NCBI GenBank assembly: GCA_965279515.1
Contig: CBDIID010000003.1
Span: forward strand, 320,001 to 384,000
From: Turneriella sp.
GTDB taxonomy: Bacteria; Spirochaetota; Leptospiria; Turneriellales; Turneriellaceae
Length of the DNA: 64,000 nucleotides
Direction of reading: 5' to 3'
This document shows positions 44,038-60,730 of the stretch, in pieces (position 1 is the stretch's first letter; each line of letters starts with the position of its first letter). The notes under the pieces were generated by a model. It searched no databases, had not been told where the DNA came from, and saw only the letters and a program-made list of their open reading frames with translations. Both the position numbers and the translations under genes were made by a program.

Positions 44038-44070
44038 AGACCGCCGGAGTAAACCCCGGCGGTTTTTTTA
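44038..44070 (+). terminator. Rho-independent terminator
   Basis: ACCGCCGG-agtaaac-CCGGCGGT followed by a T tract; a second hairpin at ~44000-44034 precedes it. Confidence 0.88.
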
Positions 44071-44178
44071 TGCCCAGAGTTCCCCTTTAACGACGGGGCT
44101 TTTCACTTTTTCGGAAGTTTCCGCAGCCTGCCCAGGAAGTTCTGAAAAAGCCAGAATCAGAACTTACCCTCCCCTTAT

Positions 44179-44235
44179 TGATAACGCATTCTCAGATTAA
44201 TGACATCGCTGTCACTTTTTTGGCACTCATTCTGT
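44179..44235 (+). promoter_or_regulatory. Conserved upstream module, copy 2
   Basis: TGATAAC-GC-ATTCTCA; AATGACA-TCGC-TGTCACT; TTTTGGCAC-N7-GT. Confidence 0.65.
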
Positions 44236-44324
44236 CACGGCTCGTATATTATGTCATATACGGGATATCCGTATGCATGCAGGTAACCCCTGCAAATTCT
44301 AAATACGTGAAAGGAAGTATATTT

Positions 44325-45365
44325 ATGAAAAAGCTCACAGCAATCGCTTTGATGCTCTTAACCGCTTCTTCGGCATTCGCCTGGAAGGGTGCAACCCACA
44401 GCCGTCTATCGCAGGATGCGATCGACCTGCTCGCCAGCATGACGACGAACCCGCAGGCGCAGGCCGCGGTACAAAAACTGATCGGCAAATACGGTTCGGT
44501 TTCAGCTGCGAAAACCGCGTTCGGTACTCAGGCAAAAAACGAAGACATTCCGCAACCGAACACCCCGCTGGGCAACGACCAATGGTATGACGCCTGGTGG
44601 TCGTGGTCACGTAACGGTTCGCCCTCGCTTTTCGGGCTCGTAGACGTGAACTATTTCGTGGCGCTGACGCACTTCGTGAACGCCTTCAATACTTCGCCTA
44701 ACACCGATGTACACGGTCAAAAACCGATGGGCTATAACTACTACCGTAGCCGAGCCCTCTATAATCTCGTGGGCGACAATTTCACCGGCGATTATGACTG
44801 GGTGACAGAGGCGTATAACTATAACCTGAACCCTGAAAGCAGCACGACAACGCGTATGAAGAACCTCTGCGGTGGTTCATGCCGTTTCAATGCGGGTGCA
44901 TACGACACCGATTACCAGGACGTTAACCAGCCCTCTGGCGCCAGCGCCTGCGCCGCCCTCATCAACGGGCCGCAGGGTTATCTCGCTTCGGGCAACGTCA
45001 CGCTGATCGCCCGTTGCTACCACTACATCGAAGACGGCGCACAACCGCACCACGCGGGTGCTTATTACGGTAAAGACCACACCGACTTCGAAGGTTTCGT
45101 GGAAGACAACTACTACAACCCCGCATACCAAATCAGCCAGACTCCGGCGAAACTTGCTGAAGCTAAAGCGCTCTATCCGCTTTTTGTAGGCATGTCAGCA
45201 GAGAACATCGTGAAGAGCATGGCGCAGTGGTCTACGACTAACTGCTATGCGGTTTACACAAACGACTACACCAGCAACGAGCTCGCCTGCGCAGAAAAAC
45301 TTCTGCCGCGCATTCGTGCGGCTGTCGCTGCGATGACGGCGAATTCGATTCAGACTCGTCCGTAA
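44325..45365 (+). CDS. Secreted Zn-dependent phospholipase C/P1 nuclease-like protein, paralog 2
   Basis: Same 346-aa length and motifs as paralog 1; AAAGGAAG RBS before ATG 44325. Confidence 0.8.
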   Translation: MKKLTAIALMLLTASSAFAWKGATHSRLSQDAIDLLASMTTNPQAQAAVQKLIGKYGSVSAAKTAFGTQAKNEDIPQPNTPLGNDQWYDAWWSWSRNGSPSLFGLVDVNYFVALTHFVNAFNTSPNTDVHGQKPMGYNYYRSRALYNLVGDNFTGDYDWVTEAYNYNLNPESSTTTRMKNLCGGSCRFNAGAYDTDYQDVNQPSGASACAALINGPQGYLASGNVTLIARCYHYIEDGAQPHHAGAYYGKDHTDFEGFVEDNYYNPAYQISQTPAKLAEAKALYPLFVGMSAENIVKSMAQWSTTNCYAVYTNDYTSNELACAEKLLPRIRAAVAAMTANSIQTRP

Positions 45366-45389
45366 ATCGTAGACAGACCAGACGATTTG

Positions 45390-45424
45390 GGGCCATGGGA
45401 TATCCTATGGCCCGCTTATTTTAT
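45390..45424 (+). terminator. Probable terminator hairpin
   Basis: GGGCCATGGG-ATAT-CCTATGGCCC followed by T-rich sequence. Confidence 0.55.
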
Positions 45425-45430
45425 AACCCT

Positions 45431-46732
45431 ATGAAAACATTACTCAGAACCAAAATCTTAATCTTCACTGCGCTGGCACTGTGCTGCAGCGGCAAGGTCA
45501 CGCACGACCTCACGGAACCGGGGATTATCGCGCAGAGCGGCGAATTCCGCGTACCGACAAAGGTATTCCAGGACTTCTTTCTCGCGATGAAAAGATCGGG
45601 ATTACCCGAGCGCAAAGACCCCCGCTCGGCGCTTTTTCTCATGATCGCCGATCATTATCTTGGCGCGGAATACAAAGCAAGTAAGGGAGATAAAATGGAT
45701 CCCGCGATTACGGCGGAGATCGAGAAAGTCTATAACGAAACCCTGGTTTTTTACATCCGCGACAAAAATCCCGAGGCGCTATACAAGGCTTACGTCGGAA
45801 ACTTTACGCTTCCAGACGTGAAGACGCAGAAAAGCCTTTTCAATGAAAAAGCCGAGGCTGCGTATACAAATGTGCCACTGATACGCGAGGCGGCGGAAAA
45901 GATTGTGGTCGCTGCCTACGGCCCCAAGGGCGAAAAAAAGCTCAGCTATGCAGCGCTTTTCGACGGCGCGCCCCAAGCGGGCAAGCTGCATCTTTTCACA
46001 GCGCCAAACGCTGAATCCCTCAAGGAAATGATCCATACGCACTTGCGTAAAGAGTTTGTGCGTGATTTCATCGCCGCAGCGTCGGAAGCCGAAAAGGCAG
46101 AGTATGCGGCGCTCAAGACGATCGTCAGCAACAGTATCTTATCGCGTAACTTTCGCTACGAGATGGGCATGGAGAACGCTAATCCGCACGTCGAGAACAG
46201 CGCCATCAAAGAAAAGGCTAAAGGCATCTCTTTGAGTCGCATCAAGGACTATTACGAAGTAAACAAAGACAAATATAAAGAAGTTCAGACCGTCGATTGC
46301 CGCCATATTCGCCTGAAAAACTACGAACAGGCAGTCAATATGCGGGATAAGATCGAGCACGGCGCCAACATGATCGACTATGTGAAGAAGTATTCGCTCG
46401 CCGAGGACAAAAACGCCGCCGAGCCGGGCCTCATTAAAGATATCAAAAACGACGTAAACCTGCACAAACGGCCGCGTCTCGAAACCCTGTGTATGATGCC
46501 GAAACAGGGTCAGGTCGAACTCGTGCGCGATGGCGAGGTCTATGAGATTGTAAAAGCCGAAAAGCGCATCGACGGTTATCCCCCACTCGACGACACTACC
46601 CACCTCCGGGAAGATCTGTCCCGTGAGATTGCGGCTATGGATTTGAAAAAAGAATTCGACGCCAAAAAGAAATCGATCCTTAAAAGGGTTGATATCAGGA
46701 TAAATAATACCGAATTGGGCAAAATAAAATGA
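45431..46732 (+). CDS. Lipoprotein with PpiC/parvulin-like rotamase domain (PrsA/SurA-like)
   Basis: Lipobox LAL-C; 'IKDYYE.NK..Y....V..RHI.L....A....I..G......KKYS'. Confidence 0.75.
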   Translation: MKTLLRTKILIFTALALCCSGKVTHDLTEPGIIAQSGEFRVPTKVFQDFFLAMKRSGLPERKDPRSALFLMIADHYLGAEYKASKGDKMDPAITAEIEKVYNETLVFYIRDKNPEALYKAYVGNFTLPDVKTQKSLFNEKAEAAYTNVPLIREAAEKIVVAAYGPKGEKKLSYAALFDGAPQAGKLHLFTAPNAESLKEMIHTHLRKEFVRDFIAAASEAEKAEYAALKTIVSNSILSRNFRYEMGMENANPHVENSAIKEKAKGISLSRIKDYYEVNKDKYKEVQTVDCRHIRLKNYEQAVNMRDKIEHGANMIDYVKKYSLAEDKNAAEPGLIKDIKNDVNLHKRPRLETLCMMPKQGQVELVRDGEVYEIVKAEKRIDGYPPLDDTTHLREDLSREIAAMDLKKEFDAKKKSILKRVDIRINNTELGKIK

Positions 46733-47322
46733 GACCAAAACACCTGATCCTGGCGGTTTCCGCGTTTCTCGCCGCGCTTTATTTCCTGACACGCGAATCT
46801 GAAAAGAAAGCGGGTATAGTCCAACGGCAAGAACGCATAACCGTCATTTCGGCGACATATAATGCTGCAGATTATCAGCCCGACCTGGACAATTACCGGC
46901 TCGAGCGCGACGAGCTGATGGCAAAGCCCAACCACAGCGAAGCGCGGCTAAAACCGGAATTCAAAGGGGCTCCCGAATATAAATATTCGAATCTGCGTGC
47001 AAAAGTACCCGGTGGTCCCGTAGATGATTTCGGGGCGCCATTTTTTGTGCCTACGGAAACCGCGATGACCGATCCGAAGATTTTCGAACAAGAGTTGGCG
47101 AAACACAAGGAACGCTCAGAGGCTTATTCTGCGGCGCGTATGGACGAACTCAAGATGAACACGACCGCAGAGAAAACACAGATGCGCGGCGTCATCGACC
47201 AGGCGAAAGCCAGTGGATCAAAAACACCCGAAGAGATTAAACGCGCCGAAGACGCTTACGCACGCATCGAAAATCTTGAAAAAGTACTTAAAGGTGAAAA
47301 GGTCGAAAAAATCCTCGACTAG
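46729..47322 (+). CDS. Hypothetical membrane-anchored protein
   Basis: N-terminal TM; 4-nt overlap with the upstream gene. Confidence 0.65.
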   Translation: MRPKHLILAVSAFLAALYFLTRESEKKAGIVQRQERITVISATYNAADYQPDLDNYRLERDELMAKPNHSEARLKPEFKGAPEYKYSNLRAKVPGGPVDDFGAPFFVPTETAMTDPKIFEQELAKHKERSEAYSAARMDELKMNTTAEKTQMRGVIDQAKASGSKTPEEIKRAEDAYARIENLEKVLKGEKVEKILD

Positions 47323-47876
47323 GGTTTTTTAGCCGCTTGACCCGGCGCAATAAAAAAATCATTATCGCCATTGGGGCGCACGACCTGCACCAACGGAAAC
47401 TGCAGTTCGCGCCCGGCATCGGTTAGACGCGCAAGTTCTGTCCAGATTTTACGCAGTGCGATCGCCGTCTGTGCATAAATAGTAAATTTATAAGCCGGGC
47501 TGATTTTAAGTTCATAAGGCTTTTTGCCCTGCGCCGCGAGGGCTTTTACGACATGCGCGGGCAGTTTTTTTTCCGTGATACAGCCGCCCGCAGATTTCAG
47601 GTAGGGTTTTCCCACGGTGATGGCATTCTCAAAATAGATCAGAACCGGCTCGCAGGGCAACGCATACGATTGTAACAGGCGGCGTGTCTGAACGATCTGT
47701 TCGCCGGTCTTGTTATAGTCACCGCGATGTTCACCCGCATAAATCGTCGCGGCAAAAACTTGTCCCTCGGACCGCTCTGCGCCGCTGAAGACGCCGAGAT
47801 AGACATACGAAAATATAAAGAAACCTGGCACTGTGATTGTGAATGCCGCAATGATGAGGATGAATTTCTTATTCAA
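47319..47876 (-). CDS. Hypothetical membrane-anchored protein (GyrI-like fold possible)
   Basis: N-terminal TM; 'H.GDY..TG', 'IYFEN', 'S.GGCI'. Confidence 0.6.
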   Translation of the reverse strand: MNKKFILIIAAFTITVPGFFIFSYVYLGVFSGAERSEGQVFAATIYAGEHRGDYNKTGEQIVQTRRLLQSYALPCEPVLIYFENAITVGKPYLKSAGGCITEKKLPAHVVKALAAQGKKPYELKISPAYKFTIYAQTAIALRKIWTELARLTDAGRELQFPLVQVVRPNGDNDFFIAPGQAAKKP

Positions 47877-48355
47877 GATTTTTTTCCCGTGGCGATGAGT
47901 TTCTCGATAATCTTAACCTCGGCGTCGGTGAGCGGAATCACGGAAAGCCGGAAGCTGGTAAAGAGCAGTGATTTTCCCAGGCCCGCAGCTTTCAGGACTT
48001 CGCGGTCGAGTTCGAACGGGTATTTTTTGACGAATTTGAAACGCGGCGAAAACCACTGCGGTTTTTCACGTTTGCTTTTGGCGTCAAAATAAGGCGACTT
48101 TTTATCGAATGCGCTTTCATCGGGTTCCGCTTTGGCGATAACCTTCATCTCGCCGACGATCGCCGGCACCGGGCAGCTCGAATGGTAAAAGTAGCCCCGG
48201 TCACCGATTTCCATCGCGACCAGATTGTTGCGCGCAGTAAAATTGCGCACGCCGTCCCAGAGCGTTGTCTTATCTTTCAGCGCCATGAGATGGTCGATGC
48301 CGAACGTATCCGGCTCTGATTTCAGAATCCACGAACGTGGCGGGCGCGCTGCCAT
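47873..48355 (-). CDS. EVE domain protein
   Basis: WILKSEP..F, WDGVRN..ARN, GD...FYHS, YFD.KS, RLSV.P. Confidence 0.93.
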   Translation of the reverse strand: MAARPPRSWILKSEPDTFGIDHLMALKDKTTLWDGVRNFTARNNLVAMEIGDRGYFYHSSCPVPAIVGEMKVIAKAEPDESAFDKKSPYFDAKSKREKPQWFSPRFKFVKKYPFELDREVLKAAGLGKSLLFTSFRLSVIPLTDAEVKIIEKLIATGKKS

Positions 48356-48585
48356 CAGGACGGACTTCCTAAATCCCAGACATACTCAAACTCTTCTTTA
48401 GCGGCTTCATCGAGACGTTCGGGCTGGAAAAGGGTTTTGACTTTCGGATTGGGATAGAGCTTTACTTCATTGGCTTCGGGAATATGCGTAATCATGCGCA
48501 CGATGGTGTTTTCGCCTTCAATCTCGTAGAGCATAAAGGCGGTGCCTTTGCCCGGCACAGGCATCGCGGATTTCAGATAGCGCAT
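48355..48585 (-). CDS. Small hypothetical protein
   Basis: 76-aa ORF (MRYLKS...) whose stop overlaps the EVE start; start uncertain. Confidence 0.6.
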   Translation of the reverse strand: MRYLKSAMPVPGKGTAFMLYEIEGENTIVRMITHIPEANEVKLYPNPKVKTLFQPERLDEAAKEEFEYVWDLGSPS

Positions 48586-48643
48586 GACGCCGATTGCGGG
48601 GCTTTCGACAAAGCGAAAATCACTAAACCGCGGGGCGGGCCGG

Positions 48644-49921
48644 CTAATCACCGGCCACGGTTAAACGCTCAAAAAACACGCCTTTAGGCCCAAAATACGA
48701 GGCCCGCTGCACCGTTTCCTGCGATTTGAATGCGGTGGCGAAGGCTGTCTGCGTCGATCCTGAAACCGAGCCGCCCTTGATCGGAATCTTTTTACCATTC
48801 TTGTGCAGGTAACCCAGGCGGATTTCCCCCGAGAAGGCACCCGAAATCGTATTCGGCTGGAACGTTGAAAACTTGCTGAGTTCGAGCACTCCTTCACCCA
48901 GGAAATCCGCATAGCGAGTGGCACCGCAGGCAACTTCAATATTCATGAGCGCGCTCGTGCGCGGAGTTTTTAAGAGATCGGCGTAACGCCCGTCGATCAG
49001 AAAGTTCGTGACCGTTGAATTTTCGATGAGTTTCACTGTCTCTGCGGCAAAACCGAGATCGTCGAAAACAAACGAGCGCATGCCACCGGGAATTTCCGCG
49101 TTAGAGGAAATAGCCAGGGGTTCTTTCGCGTCGCGGACAACCATGTCGCCCCTTTGGAAAATCGAATAGCGGTTAAAGAGAGCATGCCCGTCGAGCTGCG
49201 CGACAAAAAAATCAAACAGGCTATCCAGCGCGTCGCCGGCAAGCACGACCGGAAACTCGCCGGTCGGCGGCAACACCGCAGCCTCAAGATCACTGAGTAT
49301 CGCTGCGTCTTCTTCGAGTTGCTCTTCGAGTGTCAGGTCGGCAAGCAGGCGGCGTTTTTTGATACCCATGATCTCGTGCCGGTTATCGGGGCTGGTGAGT
49401 ACGTAGTCGCAGACGACCCGGGTTGACGCCGCTTCGACTTCGAGGCCACGATGATTGCGGATCAGGTAATCGTATTCTTCAAAAAAAAGCTCCATGCTGT
49501 TTAAAGGAAACCGCGCCAGGTTTTTGAGCCGGAAATTTCTTATCCGGTCGGCGTAGGCGATGAGCGCATCGAGGTCAGCGTCACCAATCGCCGGGTCAAG
49601 AATCGCAGCCGTCCTTTTCGGCGTGTATGCAGCTGAAAAATTAAATGCGGGATTGCGCACCAGCCGTGCGCGTGCAGCGGTCTGGCTGACGAGATCCGTA
49701 AGCGATGCCGGTTTGCCCTGAAAACGCGTGGTGCTCTCACCCATCAACGCATCGTCGACCGGCGTCTGTATGCGCAGCGCGTAATTTTGCACCGAGTTAC
49801 AGCGGACAGTCTCGATTTCGTCCTTAACGAGGTAGACTTCGGTCGATCTTTTTTGCAGGTTGCTGACCTGCCAACCGCGCAGGCCGATTGCTTTTTTAAG
49901 AACAGAGATAAGACTTTTCAA
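48644..49921 (-). CDS. TldD/PmbA family protein (PmbA/TldE-like, no HExxH)
   Basis: G.FPVVL, S..FDD.G, LIE......FL, SG.FSG, PI.G.SVSG. Confidence 0.85.
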   Translation of the reverse strand: MKSLISVLKKAIGLRGWQVSNLQKRSTEVYLVKDEIETVRCNSVQNYALRIQTPVDDALMGESTTRFQGKPASLTDLVSQTAARARLVRNPAFNFSAAYTPKRTAAILDPAIGDADLDALIAYADRIRNFRLKNLARFPLNSMELFFEEYDYLIRNHRGLEVEAASTRVVCDYVLTSPDNRHEIMGIKKRRLLADLTLEEQLEEDAAILSDLEAAVLPPTGEFPVVLAGDALDSLFDFFVAQLDGHALFNRYSIFQRGDMVVRDAKEPLAISSNAEIPGGMRSFVFDDLGFAAETVKLIENSTVTNFLIDGRYADLLKTPRTSALMNIEVACGATRYADFLGEGVLELSKFSTFQPNTISGAFSGEIRLGYLHKNGKKIPIKGGSVSGSTQTAFATAFKSQETVQRASYFGPKGVFFERLTVAGD

Positions 49922-49927
49922 TTTTTT

Positions 49928-50272
49928 TCAGGGACAAAAGGCGGTATCGGATACTTTGTACTTTGAATTATTCGAGCATGTCAGCGTATAGCCACTGGAC
50001 TCGCATTTTTTATCTTCATAAGCAATGATAGTATCGTCGTAAATTGTCAGCGAAGTGGATGTGCAGTCTACACTCAGGTTCTTGCAGGCGTCTTTACTGC
50101 TTTCATCCGTGCAGTAAGTGGCTATGCGTTGGCTCGCGTTGCCGCCACCGCAGGTCGGCGTTTTAACGGTAATGGTCGTCGAATGGATGCAGACCGTCGG
50201 CTTGCTATCGTCTTTTTTCATATTATTGCAGCCGGCAATGAGGAGTAAGGCCAGGCAGAAGGCGATGCGCAT
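49928..50272 (-). CDS. Cys-rich lipoprotein
   Basis: Lipobox LIAG-C plus eight further Cys in about 100 aa. Confidence 0.75.
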   Translation of the reverse strand: MRIAFCLALLLIAGCNNMKKDDSKPTVCIHSTTITVKTPTCGGGNASQRIATYCTDESSKDACKNLSVDCTSTSLTIYDDTIIAYEDKKCESSGYTLTCSNNSKYKVSDTAFCP

Positions 50273-50630
50273 ACCGGCACAGGTCGGCTTTTCGGAGCGG
50301 CGTCAACCCTTCCCCGCTGGGAAATAAGAAATTTCTGTTTTTTTCTTCGATACCATAAAGAGACAGCTTAGGCTACGTCCAAGGCTTCCAGGGCGCTCTC
50401 AGTTCAAATAACTTAAGATAACGAGGGTTCAGAGCAACCGTACATATGCCGTATGAAACGATTAAGGTAGGTTATGCCTTTGGGGCGAACTTACCGTTTG
50501 AAAGAGTAACTCCCCCTCCGGGGATTAATCCCGAAGTCGCCGCCTGGATACACGTCGTGTGTAGCGGCGACTGTGAGCCTCGTGCTCATTATCAGCGGCC
50601 CCGGTGCCGCCGTAATCGGGGGCTGCTGAT

Positions 50631-50648
50631 GCAACCAGGGATGGTTGT
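50631..50648 (+). promoter_or_regulatory. CsrA-binding-site-like hairpin in the flaB leader
   Basis: GCAACCA-GGGA-TGGTTGT exposes ANGGA at the loop; a second ANGGA lies in the SD (CAAGGAGG, 50708-50715). Confidence 0.65.
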
Positions 50649-50721
50649 GGCACAGCTCAACTGGGTCCAGGGCCTTTTGCCTTTGGCAAAAGGCATTGGA
50701 AATTTTCCAAGGAGGGAGAAG

Positions 50722-51585
50722 ATGCAGATCAATCACAATCTGCCCGCGATGCAGGTGAACCGTCAATTGCACAAGGCTTTCAGCCGCTACGAGAAATCGA
50801 TAGAGAAGCTGAGCACTGGCGAACGGATCAACAAAGCGGGCGACGACGCGACCAATTTGGCCGTGTCAGAGAAGATGCGCACACAGATTCGGGGCTTGAA
50901 ACAGGCCGAGCACAATGCGATGAACGGAATGTCGTTCATCCAGACTGCCGAAGGCAACATGGGTCAGGTCAACGACATTCTGCAGCGTATCAGGGAACTT
51001 TCGGTGCAGTCAGCCAACGGGATTTATTCCGACGGTGACAGGCAGCAGATTCAGGTGGAGGTATCGCAGCTGATCGACGAAGTCGACCGCATCGGTACAT
51101 CCGCAGAATTTAACCGGATGAAACTTCTGACCGGCAGGTATGCACGCGGGTCAAAGCTGGGGTCGATTTTCTTTCACGTGGGGCCCAATAAAGACCAGCG
51201 CATCCAGGCGTTCATTAAAACAATGAATGGACGGGCGTTTGGTTTTTACCAGGGCAACGGCGCGAAAGCGGCCAAAAAACCGTTAGCGACGGTTTACCAG
51301 GCGAATGAGATGATCGGGACCGTGGATAACGCTCTCGATAAGCTCGTGCGTCAGCGGGCGGATCTCGGCGCGTATCACAACCGTATTGAAACCACGGTTG
51401 AAGCGCTCCGAACCGGCTATGAGAACATGGTGGCGGCAGAATCACGGATTCGCGACACTGACATGGCCGAGGAACTGCTGGAGTTCACGAAAAATCAGGT
51501 TCAGTTACAGAGTGGTACGGCGATGTTGGCTCACACCAACTTTTCCTCTCAGCTTGTAGTGTCTCTTATCGAGCACAGCAAGTAG
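50722..51585 (+). CDS. flaB: Flagellin (periplasmic flagellar core protein FlaB)
   Basis: INHN, EKLSTGERINKAGDD, QTAEG, ILQRIREL-x-VQSANG, ESRIRDTDMA; strong SD. Confidence 0.95.
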   Translation: MQINHNLPAMQVNRQLHKAFSRYEKSIEKLSTGERINKAGDDATNLAVSEKMRTQIRGLKQAEHNAMNGMSFIQTAEGNMGQVNDILQRIRELSVQSANGIYSDGDRQQIQVEVSQLIDEVDRIGTSAEFNRMKLLTGRYARGSKLGSIFFHVGPNKDQRIQAFIKTMNGRAFGFYQGNGAKAAKKPLATVYQANEMIGTVDNALDKLVRQRADLGAYHNRIETTVEALRTGYENMVAAESRIRDTDMAEELLEFTKNQVQLQSGTAMLAHTNFSSQLVVSLIEHSK

Positions 51586-51608
51586 TTACAGACCGGATTT
51601 TCACTTCG

Positions 51609-51643
51609 AGGGGATGTTCCAAGAGGGAGCATCCCCTTTTTTA
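51609..51643 (+). terminator. Rho-independent terminator after flaB
   Basis: AGGGGATGTTCC-AAGA-GGGAGCATCCCC followed by a T tract. Confidence 0.88.
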
Positions 51644-52426
51644 TTTGCCTGTATAGTGCGGCGGACGCTTTTCGAAAAATGACCTGAGTGCCTCTTTAAA
51701 ATCCGCGGTCTGATTAAGCAAAAACTGTTGTTCCAATTCAAAGCGCTGTGATGCCTGCAAAAGGTGAGCGTAGGAGTAATCTACGATCTGCTTGTTGAGA
51801 GCAACAGCCTGCGGTGGCAAAGCGAGAAGTTTCCGGATCCATCGCTCCCTGGTGGCAGACAACTTTTCCTGCGGGACAACCTCGCTCAGAAAACCGAGGG
51901 TCTGCATCTCGTGCGCCGTAAAGTTTTCACCGAGCATGGCCATCTGCTTCGTCGCTGCAATACCGATGAGGCGTGTGACACGGCAGAGCCCCATAATGAC
52001 ACCGATACTGCGCTTCACCTCGGGCAGGGAATAAATGGCCCGGTCACTGCTGATGCGGAAATCGGCGCAAGCTGCGAGAATGACTCCCGCTCCGATGCAA
52101 AAACCCTGAATTTCGGCGATGATGGGCTTAGAAATAGCTTCAAAGCTGTCGATACAGCCCTGCCCTGCGCTTAAATGTTTGGCATAACTTTCAAAATCCT
52201 GATCAGCCATTTGCGCAATCACCGAGACATCCATGCCTGTGGAAAAATGTTTACCTGCGCTGCGCAATAAAACGACGGCCACCCCACTGTCAGCCGCGAT
52301 ATCCGCACTGATCAACCGCAACTCTTCGAGGCATTCGAGGTTGATGTTATTGCCGGTTTCCGCCCGCTGAAGAGTGAGCGTCGCCACTTTTTGCGCTATT
52401 TCACAGGTCCAATGCTGCAGTTTCAT
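51641..52426 (-). CDS. Enoyl-CoA hydratase/isomerase family protein
   Basis: FSTGMD, KPIIA.I.G.C.G.G, DFR, LPEV, F.EKR.P.Y.G. Confidence 0.92.
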   Translation of the reverse strand: MKLQHWTCEIAQKVATLTLQRAETGNNINLECLEELRLISADIAADSGVAVVLLRSAGKHFSTGMDVSVIAQMADQDFESYAKHLSAGQGCIDSFEAISKPIIAEIQGFCIGAGVILAACADFRISSDRAIYSLPEVKRSIGVIMGLCRVTRLIGIAATKQMAMLGENFTAHEMQTLGFLSEVVPQEKLSATRERWIRKLLALPPQAVALNKQIVDYSYAHLLQASQRFELEQQFLLNQTADFKEALRSFFEKRPPHYTGK

Positions 52427-54411
52427 TAGGATACACCATGAAACTGCGGATGGTTGCGCACACGATGGGATTGCCTCGCGTCCTTGACGTTGCTGACATC
52501 GTAGCGTTTGAGCCAGGCATCACCGAGCAGTGTATACTTCGTATCCTGCGGATGAAAATTCGTCGCTACTGTCGTCGAGTTTTTCGGCCCCATCGCGACC
52601 CCGCTCGAAACAAAAAACCCGGCAGCCAAAAGGTTTGCGCGGATGCGTGTGGATGAAGAATAGGTATACAGGGATGTCTGCTTCAGTCTGAAAAACATCA
52701 GCAGCTCGGTAAAAGTCTCCTCGATCCAGAACCGCGATTCGGTCTGGAAAGAGAACATGTCGTAAAAAACCTCATCGGGCGGCGGGGCATCCGCAAAGGT
52801 CTTCATAAAATCGCCTTGTATCAACTTCCATTCAAAAGAGCGTTCAGGGTTCGTGTATTCACCCTTGGCGAGAATCGCGCCGGGTGCGCGGTGCCGCAGT
52901 TCAGGAAAAAGACTGCGGTACTGGTAAGCAAGTTTCAGCGGATCGAGATCGGTCTCAAAGCTGATGAGTTTCACCGGGCGCAGCGTGCGTTTTTCGAGCA
53001 GCAGTTTCTCGTAAAGGGAAAGTACACCCATGGCATTGGTGGCCGCGCCCAGACCGACATCCCAAATGACTAAAGGTTCAGATGTCGCGGCCTGCAGTTT
53101 CTGTTCAATCTGCGATTGGTCGATGTAAAGTTTTTTGGCTTCCACCGCGGGCTCGGTCACCGAATGCATAATCTCTCCGGAAACACGATCCTTAATCGAA
53201 GCAAACGAGCCGTCCTTGCTGCGGTGGATTTCAAAATTGCCCAGCGATTCCGATTTCCGGTGCCTTTTGATTACCGGCTGATAGGTAATCTCTGGTCCGT
53301 CGCTGCGAATCAGGTCGGTTTGTTTCTGCCGGTAAAAATCTAAAAAGCGGTCTTCACGAATCGCGCCGCGGATCTCATTCATCAGCTTGTGGTAGAACTG
53401 CAGGTTGTGGCGGCCGATCAGGTGCCAGCCCAGGATCTCCTGGGTTTTGACAAGATGATGCAGATAGCCGCGCGAATACGAGCGGCAGGTATCGCACGCG
53501 CAGGCGCTATCCAGCGGTTCATCGGCAAGCCGGTAGCGTGTGCGCCGCAGCGCCACCTTGCCCTCGCCGGTAAAAGCCGTGCCCCTTTCAGCATATTGCA
53601 GCGGCAAAATGCAATCGAACATATCGATGCCGCGGTGCACACCCTCGAGCAAATCAATGGGAGTGCCCACACCCATAAGATAGCGCGGCTTTTCCTGCGG
53701 CAGAAATTCCGTGGTAAAAGCGGTGATGTCTTCGCGCTCGGCTTTGCTTTCACCGACGGCGAGGCCGCCCACTGCGAAACCGTCAAAATCAATTTGCGTG
53801 AGTTCCGCCGCGCTGCGTTTTCTGAGATCGGTAAAACACGCGCCCTGGACGATGCCAAAGAGCGCCTGCACGGAATCGCCCCTGGCGGCAAAGGAACGGT
53901 GAGCCCAACGCGTCGTGCGTTCGAGGGCATCGATCACTTCGGCGCGTTCAGCGGTTGAAGGGATGCACTGGTCGAGAGCCATCATGATATCGCTGCCGAT
54001 GGTTTTCTGCGCCTGGATGCTGAGTTCGGGTGAAAACAGCGTCTTTTTGCCGTCGACCTGGCTGATAAATTCCGCGCCTTGTTCGGTCATTTTTCGTGCA
54101 TGCGGCAGCGAGAAGATCTGGTAGCCCCCCGAATCGGTCAGTACGCTTTTGGGCCAGTTCATGAAGGTGTGGATGTCTTTGAATTTCTCAAAGACCTGGA
54201 GCCCCGGCCGCGAGAAAAGATGGTAGGTGTTTGCCAGCAGAATCTGGCTGCCCGTATCGAGCAGGGTTTCGCGCGTCTGGCTTTTTACCGTGGCGAGCGT
54301 GCCGACGGGCATAAAGATCGGCGTCTCAATAACAGAATGAAGCGTCTTCAGGCGGCCGACGCGCGCCTGTGAATGGCTGGCTTTGTGGGTTACGGAGAAT
54401 TCAAGGCGCAT
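52426..54411 (-). CDS. tgt: tRNA-guanine(34) transglycosylase fused to MnmC/MnmD-like methyltransferase
   Basis: TPIFMPVGT, NTYHL, TDSGGYQ, DQC, GGLAVGE, DMFDC, CACDTC...H. C-terminal GEIMHS, DVGLGAATN, ISFE, FYDMFS, TYSS. Confidence 0.92.
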   Translation of the reverse strand: MRLEFSVTHKASHSQARVGRLKTLHSVIETPIFMPVGTLATVKSQTRETLLDTGSQILLANTYHLFSRPGLQVFEKFKDIHTFMNWPKSVLTDSGGYQIFSLPHARKMTEQGAEFISQVDGKKTLFSPELSIQAQKTIGSDIMMALDQCIPSTAERAEVIDALERTTRWAHRSFAARGDSVQALFGIVQGACFTDLRKRSAAELTQIDFDGFAVGGLAVGESKAEREDITAFTTEFLPQEKPRYLMGVGTPIDLLEGVHRGIDMFDCILPLQYAERGTAFTGEGKVALRRTRYRLADEPLDSACACDTCRSYSRGYLHHLVKTQEILGWHLIGRHNLQFYHKLMNEIRGAIREDRFLDFYRQKQTDLIRSDGPEITYQPVIKRHRKSESLGNFEIHRSKDGSFASIKDRVSGEIMHSVTEPAVEAKKLYIDQSQIEQKLQAATSEPLVIWDVGLGAATNAMGVLSLYEKLLLEKRTLRPVKLISFETDLDPLKLAYQYRSLFPELRHRAPGAILAKGEYTNPERSFEWKLIQGDFMKTFADAPPPDEVFYDMFSFQTESRFWIEETFTELLMFFRLKQTSLYTYSSSTRIRANLLAAGFFVSSGVAMGPKNSTTVATNFHPQDTKYTLLGDAWLKRYDVSNVKDARQSHRVRNHPQFHGVS

Positions 54412-54545
54412 CGCCGAACGAAAAGGCATTTGAATGACTCTGTAAACTGCGATTTGGATTGGCGGAACGCTTTGTGCGCCGAACAATAAACAGGGTGACG
54501 GCATGTCTCGATCACCGGAATCTCCGTTTAAGAGATAACATCCAT

Positions 54546-55982
54546 TTGAGTACCACGACAGCAAAAAAGACATTCGCCGAACTCGGCGTCTCACACACTA
54601 CACTTCAGGCAATCACCGACATGGGCTTCCGCGAAGCCTCACCCGTACAGGAAAAGGCCATACCGATTCTGCTCGAAGGCCATGACCTGATTGGTCAGGC
54701 GCAGACCGGCACCGGTAAGACTGCGGCGTTCGCGATTCCTGTCATCGAGCGGATTTCCACCGAGAAGCGCCTGCAGGCGATGATTCTTTGCCCCACGCGC
54801 GAGCTGGCGATGCAGGTGGCCGACGAGATCCGTAAGATTCTGAAATATAAGAAGGAGATTCTTGTCGCAACCGTCTACGGCGGGCAGAAGATCGGCATGC
54901 AGTTCCGCGATCTGAAACTCAAACCGCAGATCATCGTCGGTACACCCGGCCGCATCATGGACCACATGGCGCGCAAAACCATCAAGATGAACACGGTGCA
55001 ATTCTTCGTACTCGACGAGGCCGACGAAATGCTCGCGCAGGGGTTTCGCGAAGACATCGAACATATTCTGACAGACGCCCCCAAAGAGCGGCAGACGATT
55101 TTATTCTCTGCGACAATGAGCAAGGAAGTGCTGGCGATTACTTCACGCTTCCTGACGAATCCACAAAAGGTGGATGTCCTCGCCGGCGAGAGCAATAAAC
55201 CCAAAATCGATCAATTCTTCGCCATCGTGCCCGAGAAGAACCGTGTCGAAGCGGTGATTCGCCTGATGGATTTTTACGAAATCAAGACCGCACTGGTGTT
55301 CAGTAACATGCGCTCCCAGGTTGACGGTTTAACCGCCCAGTTCAACGACCGCGGCTTCAGCGCCGAGGGCATCCACGGCGATTTGAACCAGGCGCAGCGC
55401 GACAAGGTCATGGCGCGTTTGCGTACAGGCAATGTGCGGCTACTCATCGCCACCGACGTGGCCGGGCGCGGCATCGACATCAGCCACATCGACGCAGTCT
55501 TCAACTTCGACCTGCCGCGCGATGTCGAGTCCTACATCCACCGCGTCGGCCGCACCGGGCGCGCCGGCAAGAGCGGCAGGGCCTTTGCCTTTGTGCGCAA
55601 CTCGGAGCTCAGTAAACTCAAGCGCATCGAAAGAACGCATGGCATCCGCGTCACTCCGCATGACATACCCGCGCTCGAGGCGCTCGTCGGTAAAAGAACG
55701 GCGGTCGTGCTCGAAGACCTGAAGGCCGTGGCGAAAAAAGCGAATCTGGAAAAACTGTATCCCCAGGTGCAGGAATTGGTCGAGCAGGGTTTTTCAGTCA
55801 CAGATATTGCCGCCGCCGCGATCAAAGTACTGCTCGGCCAAAATGGCGGTGGTTATGACACCAAGGCGCATTTTACTTCATTTAAGGAAGAGCTGAAATC
55901 TTTTCAAAGCGAAAAGCCGAAAGGCGGCGGTTACAAGGGCGGCAAAAGCCGAAGACGGTTCGGGCCTCCGAAACGCAAATAA
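54546..55982 (+). CDS. DEAD-box RNA helicase (CshA/DeaD-like)
   Basis: AQTGTGKT, PTRELA, TPGR, DEAD, SAT, RGID, HRVGRTGRAG; basic tail. TTG start inferred. Confidence 0.95.
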   Translation: MSTTTAKKTFAELGVSHTTLQAITDMGFREASPVQEKAIPILLEGHDLIGQAQTGTGKTAAFAIPVIERISTEKRLQAMILCPTRELAMQVADEIRKILKYKKEILVATVYGGQKIGMQFRDLKLKPQIIVGTPGRIMDHMARKTIKMNTVQFFVLDEADEMLAQGFREDIEHILTDAPKERQTILFSATMSKEVLAITSRFLTNPQKVDVLAGESNKPKIDQFFAIVPEKNRVEAVIRLMDFYEIKTALVFSNMRSQVDGLTAQFNDRGFSAEGIHGDLNQAQRDKVMARLRTGNVRLLIATDVAGRGIDISHIDAVFNFDLPRDVESYIHRVGRTGRAGKSGRAFAFVRNSELSKLKRIERTHGIRVTPHDIPALEALVGKRTAVVLEDLKAVAKKANLEKLYPQVQELVEQGFSVTDIAAAAIKVLLGQNGGGYDTKAHFTSFKEELKSFQSEKPKGGGYKGGKSRRRFGPPKRK

Positions 55983-56027
55983 TCCCATTGTTGTTTGACA
56001 ATTTCTCTCTGCGGACAGCCGTTACGC

Positions 56028-57461
56028 ATGAAGGGAAGAAACATTGTCCTGTCGTTCATTTTCGCAATACCAACAATTTACGGCATTTCAAAACATCTGG
56101 CGCCTTACGGGGCGAAGAACTTCCCTGATCACTACAGCGAAGCGGTCGATGCGTATTTTACCGCTGAGAAGCTCGTGCGCGCCGGGCAGTACGGCAGGGC
56201 CTCGGAAATTTTAACCGCATTCTGGGCGAAATATCCCCAGGGAAATGCAGCGTGGCAACAGCTACCACAGCAAGCCGGCGGTATTTTCACCGGGCATCCG
56301 CCCGCCTATGCTTCACTGCAAATGCTCACGAAAATTGCCGAGACCTTTGCCCAGGGCCTGCCCCGCCCGCGTGAGACGCTTGCGTTCACAGTTGTGTTGC
56401 CGCAGAACTCGACGGGGTTTGATCCCGCCAATGAGCAGGAATTGCGCGACAACCGGGGAACGCCGGTGACACACCACCTCGACCCGCGCATTTCGGCTGG
56501 CAAGTACCGCGCCGTGGACGAGTCGCTCTGGCTGTTCCAGGAATATCTCGGCGCCTTAACGGGGGGTGAAGCCCGCTTCACAGTCAGATATGTGCCCCTG
56601 AAAATTTCAATCCCCATTGTCACCGGCACTTCGTCCAAGGGCACCATTACCAGCAGGCCTGCAGATGAGGGCTACCGCCAGATCTGGGCAAGCATCGGGG
56701 CGCAGGTACGGCAACGCACCGATTTCTGGATGATCGTCTACCCCTCACATAAACCGGAGAATGCGGCTTTGCGAGAATCCCTTTATATTACCGGTGGCGG
56801 CATGGGGCGTGGCCCCGATGGCAGTCCGTGCATCATCGTCGATGACATGTTCCTTTTGCGCGCGCAGCCGCATTTCAAAGTCGCCGAGAAGGATTTTGAT
56901 GCGCTCGAACGCCGCCTCTATCTGCCGCAATTCATGCAACATGAGTTCTTTCATTACCTGTTCGCGATGTATCCGGAGTTTGGCTTGGAAGCAGAGAGCC
57001 ACCAATGGCACCAGCGCTCTGCCTGGCCGTCTGATTTTCAGGGAATCGTTGAGTCAGATTATTACCAGGAAAGTTTTGAGAAACGCATCCGCGCGGCGGC
57101 TGTTCCGACCATTGCCAAATTGCGTTTTCAGGGGCCTCAGGATAATCTCTTGCGGGCCATCGAGCCCGCACAAATAGCGGGGCGTTACAGCCGCGAGCCG
57201 GTACAAAATGGCTGGCATAACGGCACGATCACCGTTGGGGAAAATTCCCTGCTATGGAAAAACACAGCCGGCGCGCTCTGGAACCTGCAATGGAACCAAA
57301 AAGGTGAGCTGATCACGGGCGATGATAATCCGTATTTTAAATCAAATCCGGCGAGCGGGCGCTCATTCAGAATTCGCCTGAAACGCGATGCTGCGGGTAA
57401 GTACACCACAGCCATCGACGGCTTTATGTTTCAGGATGAATTTTACCGGAAAGTCGAATAG
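56028..57461 (+). CDS. Hypothetical exported protein with HExxH motif
   Basis: N-terminal hydrophobic segment; QHEFFH. Confidence 0.7.
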   Translation: MKGRNIVLSFIFAIPTIYGISKHLAPYGAKNFPDHYSEAVDAYFTAEKLVRAGQYGRASEILTAFWAKYPQGNAAWQQLPQQAGGIFTGHPPAYASLQMLTKIAETFAQGLPRPRETLAFTVVLPQNSTGFDPANEQELRDNRGTPVTHHLDPRISAGKYRAVDESLWLFQEYLGALTGGEARFTVRYVPLKISIPIVTGTSSKGTITSRPADEGYRQIWASIGAQVRQRTDFWMIVYPSHKPENAALRESLYITGGGMGRGPDGSPCIIVDDMFLLRAQPHFKVAEKDFDALERRLYLPQFMQHEFFHYLFAMYPEFGLEAESHQWHQRSAWPSDFQGIVESDYYQESFEKRIRAAAVPTIAKLRFQGPQDNLLRAIEPAQIAGRYSREPVQNGWHNGTITVGENSLLWKNTAGALWNLQWNQKGELITGDDNPYFKSNPASGRSFRIRLKRDAAGKYTTAIDGFMFQDEFYRKVE

Positions 57462-57471
57462 CAGCGCAGGC

Positions 57472-58014
57472 TTAGAAAAACGTATAACCGACACCCATAG
57501 CCGCCCAGAAGTGGTGTTTCGGACCCGGGATAAAGGCGTGCAGGCACTGCAAACTGATCGTTACACCGGAGCTCTGGAATAGAGGCAGGTCATAGTCGAG
57601 TCCATAACTGATGCCAACCCCGGCGGTTGCCTTAATACCCATGGTCTGATCATGTATGCCGCCGAGCCCTGCCGCACCCTTCGCGACAAGGCGGTTATTC
57701 CAGATAGGTTTTTTGAGCATCAGCATCCAGCCGCCCACCAAATGCTCTCCGCCTGAAGGCATGGCAAAACCCTTCGACTGGATAAACGTATGGTCGAGCG
57801 CAACGGTGATCTGGCTTTTTCGGAAGGTGCCGCCAATCTCCATATTATGGAACAGGCCACCTGAAGTCGGGCCATAACCCCAGCCGATCTGCGCCTGAAA
57901 GTGAAAACCGCCACGCACCGGAAGAGGTGAAACAATATCTTGGCTTGTCGCCTCAGCAAAAATAAAATTTTGCATCATCAGGACGATTACGCCGAAAATC
58001 TTTAAAGAACGCAC
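57472..58014 (-). CDS. Small outer-membrane beta-barrel-like protein
   Basis: Signal peptide, Gly/aromatic alternating strands, C-terminal GVGYTFF. Confidence 0.65.
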   Translation of the reverse strand: MRSLKIFGVIVLMMQNFIFAEATSQDIVSPLPVRGGFHFQAQIGWGYGPTSGGLFHNMEIGGTFRKSQITVALDHTFIQSKGFAMPSGGEHLVGGWMLMLKKPIWNNRLVAKGAAGLGGIHDQTMGIKATAGVGISYGLDYDLPLFQSSGVTISLQCLHAFIPGPKHHFWAAMGVGYTFF

Positions 58015-58035
58015 GGCTGACCCCCTACCCGCTAT

Positions 58036-59724
58036 ATGATTCGTAAATATGTATTTATTTTTTTCTCTCTATTGCTCGTACCCGCCTTCGCCCAAAAGGG
58101 GACTCCGGGGCTCGGCATCGAAGATGAACTGAACCTGAATAGAGAGAAACAAAAAAAGAAGAAAAAGAAAGCAGAAACAAAAGAAGGCGATGATATCGCC
58201 GATAAGAATACAACGGTTGAGGGCGAAGACGAGCAATATGCCCCCCCGCGCAAAAGCGATATCGAGCTGCCCAAAGTTTCTGAAGGACAGCTCAGCCGCT
58301 GGGAAGACGAGGTGCGCGACCTCAACCAAAGCGAGCGCCGCGGCACGAAGATGCTCGAACGCAAGGCGCAGATCAAGGCCGAGTATGGCACGCAGAACAC
58401 GCTGGGTGCGCAGATTTTCGTCACGAAAAAAGACGAGTTTGGCGCCTACCTCATCGAGTACAAACGCAACAAATATGACTATGAGGCCTTTGGCACCGAT
58501 GTCGTGACAAACTCGGCGCTGTCGCATGATGCTTTAAAACTTTTGGGGCAGCTCAACTTTTCACAGAGCTACAAGATGCTGCTGCGCACAGAATATAAGG
58601 AGACCGACCGCGGGCTGCAGACCAATGCCATTTACGGCAATGAAAATAAGAAACTCGGCGTCTTCCAGTGGGATAACCAGATTCGGCCGGGGGATAACCA
58701 ACGCATCACGGCCGGCATCACAGGTACCCTGGCGAAAGGCTCGGTCACACAGACCGGTACTAATATTAACCAAAATGCGGATTTCAAAAGTATCAAGGCC
58801 GCACTCGAATGGCAATACATCTTCGGCGAGCGTAATGCACTGACGCTCTCGAGCGATCTCTGGTATGGCGAAAATACCGACTACCTGACCGGTGTGCCGC
58901 AGTATTACCGCGCAGGCAATGCCGAAGCCCGCAATGTTTTTCCGCTCGCGCGATTTTTAGTGGGTAGCGATAACCAGTCGCTGCAGATCGATGCTACCGT
59001 CGGCGCCAAAGTATTTTTCGCGCAGGGATTTTCCCCCGTCATCGGCCCGCGCATCGCTCTCGATTTTTTTTACCCCGGCTACCAGGGCACCTTTGAAGTC
59101 GAGCGCACCGGCCAGATACCCGATACGGAAAAATACTTCTTCGCCCCACTTTATCAATCCCCCTACCGGTTTTACCAGGCCGAAGATGGATGGAAGATGG
59201 CGGCAAAAAACAATTTCCACCTGACTAAAGAGACCCACCTGAAGGTTTCGGCGACGCTGTTGAATCTGCCGGTTTATTTCGACCGCCGGCTCGATGCGGC
59301 AACCGGCCTCTTGACGCTGACGCCGATGAACTACCGCGCCGTGCAGGGTACGGTTTCATTCGCGCAGAATTTCGGGACGGATTTTTACCACGATACCGGG
59401 TTGGAAACCGAATGGTTTATTGACAGTGCCTCGCTGCGCGAACCGCTGTCGCTCTTCACACGGCTGCATTTCACGCCGCGCAACTGGGATTTCAGCCTCG
59501 ACCTGAAGTACATACACCAGCGGCGCGAAGTCGACCTGGCAACGCTGGCGAGCACAACACTTTCAGGTTACGTGCTTCTGGGCGCCGGGGTGGAACGCAC
59601 GCTCTTGCCCTCGGTTAAAATCTTCATCCGGGGTGAGAATTTATTCCATCAAAAGTACCAATTCGTCTCGCTTTATCAGGCTTCGGGCGCCCGGGCGTGG
59701 TTTGGGCTTAACATGGTTTATTGA
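58036..59724 (+). CDS. Large outer-membrane beta-barrel (TonB-receptor-like C-terminus)
   Basis: Signal peptide; terminal 'Y.LLG.G......V.IF..GENLF..KY.....Y...G...WFGL...Y'. Confidence 0.7.
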   Translation: MIRKYVFIFFSLLLVPAFAQKGTPGLGIEDELNLNREKQKKKKKKAETKEGDDIADKNTTVEGEDEQYAPPRKSDIELPKVSEGQLSRWEDEVRDLNQSERRGTKMLERKAQIKAEYGTQNTLGAQIFVTKKDEFGAYLIEYKRNKYDYEAFGTDVVTNSALSHDALKLLGQLNFSQSYKMLLRTEYKETDRGLQTNAIYGNENKKLGVFQWDNQIRPGDNQRITAGITGTLAKGSVTQTGTNINQNADFKSIKAALEWQYIFGERNALTLSSDLWYGENTDYLTGVPQYYRAGNAEARNVFPLARFLVGSDNQSLQIDATVGAKVFFAQGFSPVIGPRIALDFFYPGYQGTFEVERTGQIPDTEKYFFAPLYQSPYRFYQAEDGWKMAAKNNFHLTKETHLKVSATLLNLPVYFDRRLDAATGLLTLTPMNYRAVQGTVSFAQNFGTDFYHDTGLETEWFIDSASLREPLSLFTRLHFTPRNWDFSLDLKYIHQRREVDLATLASTTLSGYVLLGAGVERTLLPSVKIFIRGENLFHQKYQFVSLYQASGARAWFGLNMVY

Positions 59725-59752
59725 CGGTGCGTGTTTTTCTCTGGATTCACCC

Positions 59753-60685
59753 ATGATGGCTTGTTTTACGCAGAAATTCATATTTTTCGTGGGTATTTTG
59801 GGCATCGGAAACGCCCTTTTCGCCCATTCGGTCGAGATTCCCGGCGGGGCGAAGAGTCTTAAACCCGGACGCTATACCGCCATCGTCAAACTGGACCGTC
59901 CGCGTGCAGCGAAAGAAGGCGTCGAAGCCGATATCATCGTACCGGCCGGGTTGTCATCCCCCGCACCGGTGATTGTTTTTATCCACGGCAATGCCCGCAA
60001 TAAGGATTTCTATAAGAGCGCAGCGAATTTTTTGCTGGCGCCTGCGGCGGTGCGCAAGGCCGTCGTCATTACGATACAGAACTGGTGGCCGCTCTCGGGT
60101 GATAAACTCGAGGCCACCGAAGATACGCGCCGGGCACTCAACCTGCTGATCCATAAGCTTGTCGATGCGGGCGCAATCCAGGGCAAACATGTCTACTTGA
60201 GCGGCTTTTCGGCCGGCGGCCTCGCGGCCTTGGCAACCTTCTTACAGAGCACGGATCACTTCCGCAACGAAGCCTACAAAAATAAATTCATCACTTCCTG
60301 GGCTGCGCTGATTAAGGCTTCCAAAAAAGATCCGGAGGATTATTTTTATAATTTCCGTAACCCCGGCAAGGAAGCGGGATTTTATCCTTATGCTGGCGTT
60401 GTCTTCATAAAAGGGAATTTCTACAACAAGTTTTTCTCGTTTGTCAACGATCCGATCTTAAACGCCGACGAAACCCGAAAGCACTACGCGGCCTTAACCT
60501 GGGATAAAAAGATCATCCTCACCGTGGGTGGCGATAAAGAAGCCAAGGATGTGGTGAAAGAAGTACCCGCCTGCCGCGCGTTCTTAAAGAACCTCGGCAT
60601 GCGCCTCGACTACCATGAATTCGGCGACGAAGGCCACAATATCGATAAGTCGAGTGTCGAATTGCTCTGGCAGATGATGCCTTAG
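59753..60685 (+). CDS. Exported alpha/beta hydrolase
   Basis: PVIVFIHG, YLSGFSAGG nucleophile elbow, G..D, EGH. Confidence 0.8.
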   Translation: MMACFTQKFIFFVGILGIGNALFAHSVEIPGGAKSLKPGRYTAIVKLDRPRAAKEGVEADIIVPAGLSSPAPVIVFIHGNARNKDFYKSAANFLLAPAAVRKAVVITIQNWWPLSGDKLEATEDTRRALNLLIHKLVDAGAIQGKHVYLSGFSAGGLAALATFLQSTDHFRNEAYKNKFITSWAALIKASKKDPEDYFYNFRNPGKEAGFYPYAGVVFIKGNFYNKFFSFVNDPILNADETRKHYAALTWDKKIILTVGGDKEAKDVVKEVPACRAFLKNLGMRLDYHEFGDEGHNIDKSSVELLWQMMP

Positions 60686-60693
60686 GCGCTCAC

Positions 60694-60722
60694 TTCGACT
60701 CCGCTTAGTGAGCGAAGTCGAA
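60694..60722. repeat. REP-like hairpin between convergent genes
   Basis: TTCGACTCCGCTT-AGT-GAGCGAAGTCGAA. Confidence 0.6.
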
Positions 60723-60730
60723 CCGTCCGC

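Follow-up and report, generated by a model that had tools for sequence, protein, structure and literature searches.

Bacterial tRNA-guanine transglycosylases (TGTs) are described, in the available portion of PMC5699537, as strict for U33-G34-U35 and as the product of a signature gene of queuosine (Q). In phage DNA, according to the part of 10.1101/2023.04.13.536721 that was accessible, insertion of 7-aminomethyl-7-deazaguanine (preQ1) by DpdA2 is followed by the formation of methyl-preQ1 by DpdM. Here we analyse a gene of Turneriella sp. that joins a TGT to a methyltransferase of the MnmC2/MnmD fold; it lies in a 64,000-nucleotide stretch of DNA, referred to below as the window (NCBI GenBank assembly GCA_965279515.1, contig CBDIID010000003.1, positions 320,001 to 384,000). 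MnmC2 methylates the aminomethyl group of nm5U34 in tRNA; an aminomethyl group, likewise on base 34, is also what preQ1 presents. We propose that the fusion protein is an accessory second TGT with an RNA target of its own and a tethered amine methyltransferase. A shifted RNA target is, in our judgement, probable for the clade of TGTs to which it belongs; the full two-step model we put at slightly less than an even chance.

The fusion gene occupies 52426..54411 on the reverse strand, as do all features of it given below, and runs from an ATG to a TAA stop that shares one base with the ATG of the next gene, which encodes an enoyl-CoA hydratase. An earlier note, made from the letters of this DNA, had described a single uninterrupted open reading frame (ORF) of 661 residues, and the interval does translate in one frame without an internal stop (P0001). 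Residues 1-372 (53296..54411) constitute a TGT domain, which belongs to a separate TGT clade; a basic linker of low confidence follows at residues 373-388 (53248..53295; predicted local distance difference test, pLDDT, below 50 at 377-384), and residues 389-661 (52429..53247) form the MnmC2/MnmD-fold methyltransferase, with a family-specific C-terminal extension that ends in HPQF. Searches with hidden Markov models, which the earlier note had named as a check, matched both domains: PF01702 covers residues 15-364 with 475 bits, and PF05430 (Methyltransf_30) residues 525-617 with 36.6 bits (cut-off 22). The TGT domain also passes the equivalog model of ordinary bacterial Tgt (TIGR00430, 458 bits, cut-off 306.75), and the methyltransferase does not reach the cut-off of 136 bits for MnmC2 (NF033855, residues 412-617, 56.9 bits). 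A model of the whole protein has a pLDDT of 91.5 and a predicted template-modelling (TM) score of 0.62, and residues 377-384 of the linker are loose in it, as would suit two domains on a tether. A complete TGT and a MnmC2/MnmD-fold methyltransferase in one ORF thus make this a genuine fusion. All the motifs listed in the earlier note are present, namely TDSGG, DQC (D147, C149), GGLAVGE, DMFDC and the CxCxxC/H zinc site in the first domain and EIMHS, DVGLGAATN, ISFE, FYDMFS and TYSS in the second. Its description of an intact bacterial TGT holds for the catalytic, preQ1-pocket and zinc residues but not for an RNA-reading arginine pair, which is changed; its assignment of the second domain to the MnmC/MnmD type holds for fold and catalytic residues, but the domain lies below the MnmC2 cut-off and in a clade of its own apart from ordinary MnmD.

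The fusion is one member of a family. A search with the methyltransferase part retrieved 707 proteins of 363-1157 residues, and both Pfam domains are present in all of the best 120 of these. Named relatives belong to Leptospira, Oligoflexia, Verrucomicrobiota and Kiritimatiellia. Of 301 genomes in the phylum of this genome (a spirochaete group), 19 were found to carry the fusion, interrupted in one by a contig end; of 151 in the phylum represented by a Pseudobdellovibrionaceae record (G301), 45 carry clade-type TGTs, which a clear gap in score sets apart (at least 424 bits against at most 378 bits). Searches of 20 close relatives, including 12 of 12 genomes of the same genus and some closed genomes, did not turn up the fusion. 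This spread, together with the absence from close relatives, indicates that the fusion is old, widespread and accessory. A branch with support 100 (FastTree, 60 of 90 rows) separates TGT domains of the fusion type from the others in the tree, and they share 60-66% identity across phyla and their own signature residues. Contigs from three of four sequencing runs cover the whole stretch and show no difference from it; the runs come from one sample, which is possibly the source of the assembly. The assembly artefact that the earlier note had raised as a possibility is excluded by the family of relatives and its occurrence across genomes and phyla. Taken together, these proteins constitute a real and conserved TGT subfamily that is apparently so far undescribed.

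The catalytic core of the TGT domain is that of a bacterial TGT. Its fold matches the Zymomonas chain with a TM-score of 0.94, and it is 44-52% identical to ordinary TGTs. D93 of the DSGG motif (54124..54135), the equivalent of Zymomonas Asp102, is invariant in 247 of 247 clade domains, as are D147, C149, Q189, G216, A218, M246, D266 and the zinc ligands C304, C306, C309 and H335 (53407..53502); V219 and E221 are kept in 246. The Zymomonas-type catalytic and guanine-pocket residues D102, D156, Q203, G230 and D280, which follow the list in the accessible text of PMC5699537, are thereby all represented throughout the clade, along with the zinc site. GGLAVGE (residues 215-221; 53749..53769) aligns with Zymomonas Gly230-Glu235, and the preQ1 determinants Cys158, Leu231, Ala232 and Val233 of that enzyme correspond to C149, L217, A218 and V219, as judged from alignment and from the available parts of PMC5699537, PMC3074131, PMC3660597 and PMC10164549. 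This pocket, with C149, points to preQ1 as the base that would be inserted. A surface suited to an anticodon-type loop also appears, with moderate confidence, to be retained: G249 and D253, which belong to the U33 site, do not vary among the 247 clade domains, where we take Gly263, Lys264 and Asp267 of the Zymomonas TGT-RNA complex to be the U33 readers. Residues L98, K292 and R320 of the E. coli enzyme, implicated in tRNA binding by an E. coli TGT-tRNA structure (PMC13416341, in the part available), have equivalents in the clade that are Leu in 58 of 60, Lys or Arg in 56 of 60 and Lys or Arg in 58 of 60 members, respectively.

What sets the clade apart is the segment after the nucleophile D266. 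Here the Zymomonas chain reads DCVLPTRSGRNG and the fusion protein DCILPLQYAERG (53581..53616), with Q272 and E275 in place of Arg286 and Arg289 of the control TGTs. Thr285, Arg286 and Arg289 of the Zymomonas TGT-RNA complex are presumably the U35 readers. Among 257 clade proteins, position 272, equivalent to Arg286, holds Gln in 149, Ala in 66, Ser in 32, Glu in 4, Lys in 4, Met in 1 and Arg in 1; position 275, equivalent to Arg289, holds Gln in 153, Lys in 70, His in 10, Glu in 8, Thr in 6, Arg in 6, Gly in 2, Ala in 1 and Ser in 1. Arginine is thus found at these positions in 1/257 and 6/257 clade members, against an intact pair in 47/47 control TGTs. Because 'canonical' sets picked by the motif would be circular at these positions, the controls were three sets assembled independently of it: both arginines are present in 17/17 distinct stand-alone TGTs from fusion-bearing genomes, in 11/11 bacterial TGTs that were taken from named records and represent several phyla (the pair is missing from an archaeal protein in that set, which aligns weakly), and in 19/19 viral-contig TGTs with a readable motif, from 29 loci in all. 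With its RNA-reading motif changed, the fused TGT does not belong among the ordinary Q34 Tgt enzymes, nor, given its score and its separate clade, does the methyltransferase belong under MnmC2.

The methyltransferase appears equipped for catalysis wherever it is full length. Modelled alone, the domain has a pLDDT of 96.4, its residues align with the Aquifex MnmC2 chain, and the SAM (S-adenosylmethionine) Glu, motif III Asp, catalytic DxF and motif VI Tyr of MnmC2 are all present; the accessible portions of PMC3527978 and PMC3648344 describe the matching SAM-binding, catalytic and RNA-binding residues. G453, G455, N459 and the catalytic D551 of the DxF motif (52753..52761; Asp178 in E. coli, Asp193 in Aquifex) are invariant in 110/110 full-length fusions, E486 is kept in 109, D534 in 100, F553 in 105, Y584 in 108 and K610 in 100 to 109. 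SAM motif I, DVGLGAATN (53035..53061), departs from the GFGxGxN of ordinary MnmD rows: position 457 is Ala in 94 and Gly in 16 of the 110, and Gly in the ordinary rows. In a quick tree with midpoint root, the split between 90 fused and stand-alone clade rows and 18 rows of ordinary MnmD has a support of 97. Outside the full-length members the domain has been lost repeatedly. Among 212 clade proteins longer than 500 residues it is intact in 134 and decayed in 78, and decayed forms stand at two places in the TGT clade tree. A search with the TGT domain added 119 clade proteins of 204-651 residues; 36 of these have at most 425 residues, many being probably partial, and in about 70, Prosthecobacter proteins included, the methyltransferase is shortened and its EIMH and DxF motifs are gone. 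A methyltransferase that is intact in full-length members and decayed or missing elsewhere suggests that the TGT is the core of the system and methylation an optional second step.

Stand-alone methyltransferases of about 275 residues (P0121-P0270) form a large subfamily that shares the EIMH start and HPQF end of the fused domain, with examples at L085:8195-9028, L192:5078-5878, L193:5127-5963, L194 and L195. They score below the MnmC2 cut-off; a TGT of the clade accompanies some of them and not others, and so does an ordinary MnmC.

The ordinary pathways to Q34 and mnm5U34 are encoded alongside the fusion. Of the genes that the earlier note had listed for a genome check, this genome carries a stand-alone tgt (44% identical to the fused TGT), queA, a queG-like gene below cut-off (173.8 bits, cut-off 200), mnmG, mnmE and a stand-alone mnmC2 (158.6 bits with NF033855), the last followed by an FAD oxidoreductase; queE-queD-queC and queF are also present, and the TGA in the queF match is the normal stop of a 137-residue ORF. 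Co-occurrence was counted in the spirochaete phylum and the phylum of G301, with Verrucomicrobia outside the counts of second tgt genes; the panel of fusion genomes comprises 21 distinct genomes (G302 duplicates G294, and G191 is without the fusion), and the scan of named genomes comprised one query protein and 3 loci. A second tgt match is found in 21 of the 21 fusion genomes (in pieces in three), queA in 20, queF in 19 and a separate MnmC2-type gene in 19. For the phylum of G301 the corresponding figures are a second tgt match in 44 of 45 carriers and queA in 44 of 44 carriers tested. Since queA is near-universal in non-carriers as well (78 of the 80 tested, out of 106), all that its presence tells is that QueA is not replaced by the fusion. 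The second tgt and queA in carriers rule out the fusion as the sole tgt or as a QueA replacement. Second, weaker queA-like matches were seen in two fusion carriers (G442:C5:15171-16196, E 2e-48; G350:C4:26912-27922, E 3e-44).

We propose the following mechanism, which is built on anatomy, conservation, clade structure and co-occurrence, with activity, substrate and product as predictions. An active TGT domain would very likely excise guanine and insert preQ1. The RNA would be an anticodon-like loop in which U33 is still bound and U35 probably no longer read, a site ignored by the ordinary TGT; given a retained U33 site and the origin of both domains among enzymes of position 34, the most likely target would be G34 in tRNAs with a middle anticodon base other than U. 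The methyltransferase could then N-methylate the aminomethyl group of the inserted preQ1, much as MnmC2 acts on nm5U34, to give methyl-preQ1 (+14 Da), which QueA would probably not convert further to queuosine. In lineages with a decayed methyltransferase preQ1 would be the end product, and Q34 and mnm5U34 would be made in parallel by the stand-alone enzymes. Twelve G34 tRNA genes of this genome lack U35. As a guess, the replacement of Arg by Gln, Glu or His could read C35, which would direct the enzyme to tRNA-Cys(GCA), tRNA-Ser(GCU) and tRNA-Gly(GCC). The first two belong to split codon boxes, like the Q tRNAs; the lineage with Lys at position 275 does not fit this guess. On G000:C3 of this genome ARAGORN called 39 tRNA genes and no tmRNA, and tRNA-Thr(GGU) and tRNA-Ala(GGC) of this genome have A at position 32.

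Several observations weigh against an accessory TGT with its own target and a tethered methylation step. The roles given to key residues, above all the reading of U35 by the Arg pair, are presumptive, and a literature search, with TGT-RNA structure papers outside its scope, returned nothing on Arg286/Arg289 and U35. Basic charge may have been shifted within the motif instead of lost: position 275 is Lys in 70/257 and Arg in 6/257, residue 276 is Arg in 193/247, and position 290 is Arg in 244/247 clade domains. Six TGT rows outside the clade have Lys at Arg286, and one of them (L182) adjoins a queA-like ORF. Clade TGTs are also found unfused, in mid-contig, in some genomes where the methyltransferase is absent; conversely, stand-alone clade methyltransferases are present in 10 genomes (G191 and nine others) where a clade TGT was not found. 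Five of these ten have no other PF05430 match, and two also have a strong ordinary MnmC or MnmD; where stand-alone members are the only PF05430 match, the methyltransferase clade may include true nm5U methylases. Repeated loss of the methyltransferase also fits redundancy with MnmD. Finally, no shared neighbour suggestive of a target was found beyond close kin in 20 wide loci, with 74 of 91 flanking ORFs scanned.

Of the alternatives, the one that survives best is that of the earlier note, in which the fusion would act on the usual GUN tRNAs and compete there with QueA, perhaps only in certain conditions, by making methyl-preQ1 of base 34. The preQ1 pocket and the methyltransferase are intact, Lys or Arg at position 275 in 76/257 proteins and the frequent Arg 276 could still read U35, and stand-alone clade methyltransferases have been found alongside only an ordinary tgt. 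The chemistry of N-methyl-preQ1-tRNA, which the note had proposed in place of queuosine, remains plausible, but its GUN version is weakened by the ordinary tgt, queA and queG-like gene and by the lost Arg pair. The Arg286 equivalent is missing in 256/257 clade proteins, an ordinary tgt and queA are almost always present, and Gln occupies position 275 in most full-length members (102/133) and in most members of more than 500 residues with an intact methyltransferase (103/134), those with a decayed one having mostly Lys (59/78). A TGT clade that outlives its methyltransferase would, moreover, have no job on the same target, and we regard this reading as unlikely.

It is also conceivable, though rather improbable, that the TGT has a new target and the methyltransferase is a passenger, a second nm5(s2)U34 methylase, so that the product of the TGT would be preQ1 or Q. 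The nine top Foldseek matches of the domain model are all MnmC2 or MnmC (best E 3e-14, TM-score 0.68), the domain decays repeatedly, and in 2 of 21 carriers the fused domain is the only PF05430 match. Its position outside ordinary MnmD in the quick tree and its score under the MnmC2 cut-off speak for a different role, as does the invariance of its catalytic residues in spite of a separate MnmC2-type gene in nearly all carriers.

A more distant target, be it another RNA hairpin (rRNA, mRNA, tmRNA or phage RNA), DNA, or free preQ1 methylated before insertion, has precedents in the earlier target switches of TGT paralogues, DpdA acting on DNA and archaeal TGT on G15 (PMC5699537, available portion), and the patchy accessory distribution, with none in the same-genus genomes, would suit it. 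The identity of the domain to ordinary TGTs, the retained anticodon-loop binding residues and the descent of both domains from position-34 enzymes nevertheless make it distinctly improbable, and gene context adds little in its favour. DpdA profiles gave no match to the fusion at E 0.1, none of the 74 flanking ORFs scanned is dpd-like, and PADLOC gave no match for three proteins. Phage and plasmid records gave no full-length match to the fusion, nor did the 29 viral loci, and its GC content at third codon positions, 0.66, compares with a genome mean of 0.63 +/- 0.06. A mobile or defence setting is therefore unsupported by phage and plasmid records, viral loci, PADLOC or base composition. Within the window (47873-55982) the neighbours encode an EVE-domain protein, a PmbA/TldD protein, flagellin, the enoyl-CoA hydratase and a divergent DEAD-box helicase, and they are not conserved around relatives; tRNA genes occur in only two of the fusion loci (L082, L146). 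Rfam gave no match in window positions 44000-64000, and no sigma-70 site was found.

That the fusion is a back-up that yields no new product and merely links the Q34 pathway to that of mnm5U34, the other option of the earlier note, would agree with the equivalog score of its TGT and its database name, but dedicated genes already serve both pathways, the clade is conserved across phyla with signature residues of its own, and tethering gains little when the two pathways act on different tRNAs, all of which leaves it highly improbable.

If the TGT has acquired an RNA target of its own, 7-deazaguanine modification would extend to new tRNAs or other RNAs, with a new ribonucleoside if methylation holds. 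We offer as a tentative suggestion, with the balance still against it, that several free-living bacterial phyla possess an unrecognised second 7-deazaguanine tRNA pathway, in which a rewired position-35 pocket would place preQ1 at G34 of non-GUN tRNAs for capping as N-methyl-preQ1 by a tethered enzyme of MnmC2 descent. Public sources and the ESM Atlas label the clade proteins simply Tgt, so reconstructed pathways do not reveal the clade. For RNA labelling with TGT, an enzyme of different recognition sequence would, in addition, supply a second handle orthogonal to the first. In the literature searched, with most subscription papers and a 2024 deazaguanine review outside its scope, neither the fusion nor the TGT clade is described, and methyl-preQ1 is not reported in RNA; the available portions of PMC13602947, PMC10723273, PMC4425180, PMC6165067 and 10.64898/2026.05.18.725915 contain nothing on either.

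Other loci yielded observations of separate interest. Another type of second-copy TGT in the phylum of G301 (L180, L184, L186, L196, L197) has DMSDC and TKFARG for DMFDC and TRxxRN, forms its own clade and lies downstream of a large ORF without assigned function. At L187:2490-4411 (G219:C16) a third, long-branch tgt has immediately behind it a 16S rRNA G1405 methyltransferase of Rmt-like type (229 bits against a cut-off of 250) and an ORF similar to rsmI, and tgt adjoins rmtG or rmtE2 on plasmids as well. The 38-kb contig G000:C1 contains a recurring unit, about 23.5 kb long, on which queE-queD-queC lie together with parA/parB-like genes, and is probably a small replicon assembled beyond its end, with frame differences between copies. 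The 19.8-kb contig G000:C2 consists of three copies of a 6.6-kb unit, with ORFs that we take, from motifs, to be cytosine methyltransferase-like, convergent nuclease-like and mobilisation/replication-like. At window positions 60731-62266, on the reverse strand, a 511-residue ORF without a Pfam match scores 167.5 bits with NF045502, a variant radical SAM model whose cut-off is 125.

Compared with described systems, the fusion shares with bacterial Tgt (TIGR00430; Zymomonas, E. coli) the fold, the catalytic Asp pair, the Cys158/Val233 preQ1 pocket and the zinc site, and differs in its separate clade, its occurrence nearly always as a second copy, the lost Arg pair, the C-terminal methyltransferase and the accessory distribution. 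MnmC2/MnmD (Aquifex DUF752, 3vyw; in E. coli, MnmC's N-terminal domain) is the best match of the fused methyltransferase in sequence and fold, with the SAM-binding Glu, catalytic DxF and substrate Tyr in common; in contrast, the fused domain scores below cut-off, forms a separate clade, and has a GLGAAxN motif I and its own C-terminal extension, and its partner is a TGT where that of MnmC is the MnmC1 oxidase. Identity of the protein with archaeal TgtA can be excluded by profile and pocket, since TIGR00432 gives 151 bits against a cut-off of 350, the pocket is Leu-Ala and not Val-Val, and a PUA match is lacking; identity with DpdA or DpdM is likewise excluded by profiles, pocket and fold. The base used by TgtA and DpdA is preQ0, and their domains are additional or different ones, whereas the fusion scores far under their cut-offs and its pocket is of the preQ1 type described in PMC10164549 (available text). 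The closest parallel in proposed logic is phage DpdA2 with DpdM, where preQ1 enters by transglycosylation and is then N-methylated within the polymer, although there the polymer is DNA, the genes are separate phage genes, and DpdM is an unrelated metal-binding DUF3109 protein (10.1101/2023.04.13.536721, accessible part); the fused methyltransferase has the Rossmann-type MnmC2 fold and not the DUF3109/YkgJ metal-binding fold. Archaeal TgtA and bacterial DpdA are, like the enzyme proposed here, TGT paralogues with a changed target site or polymer.

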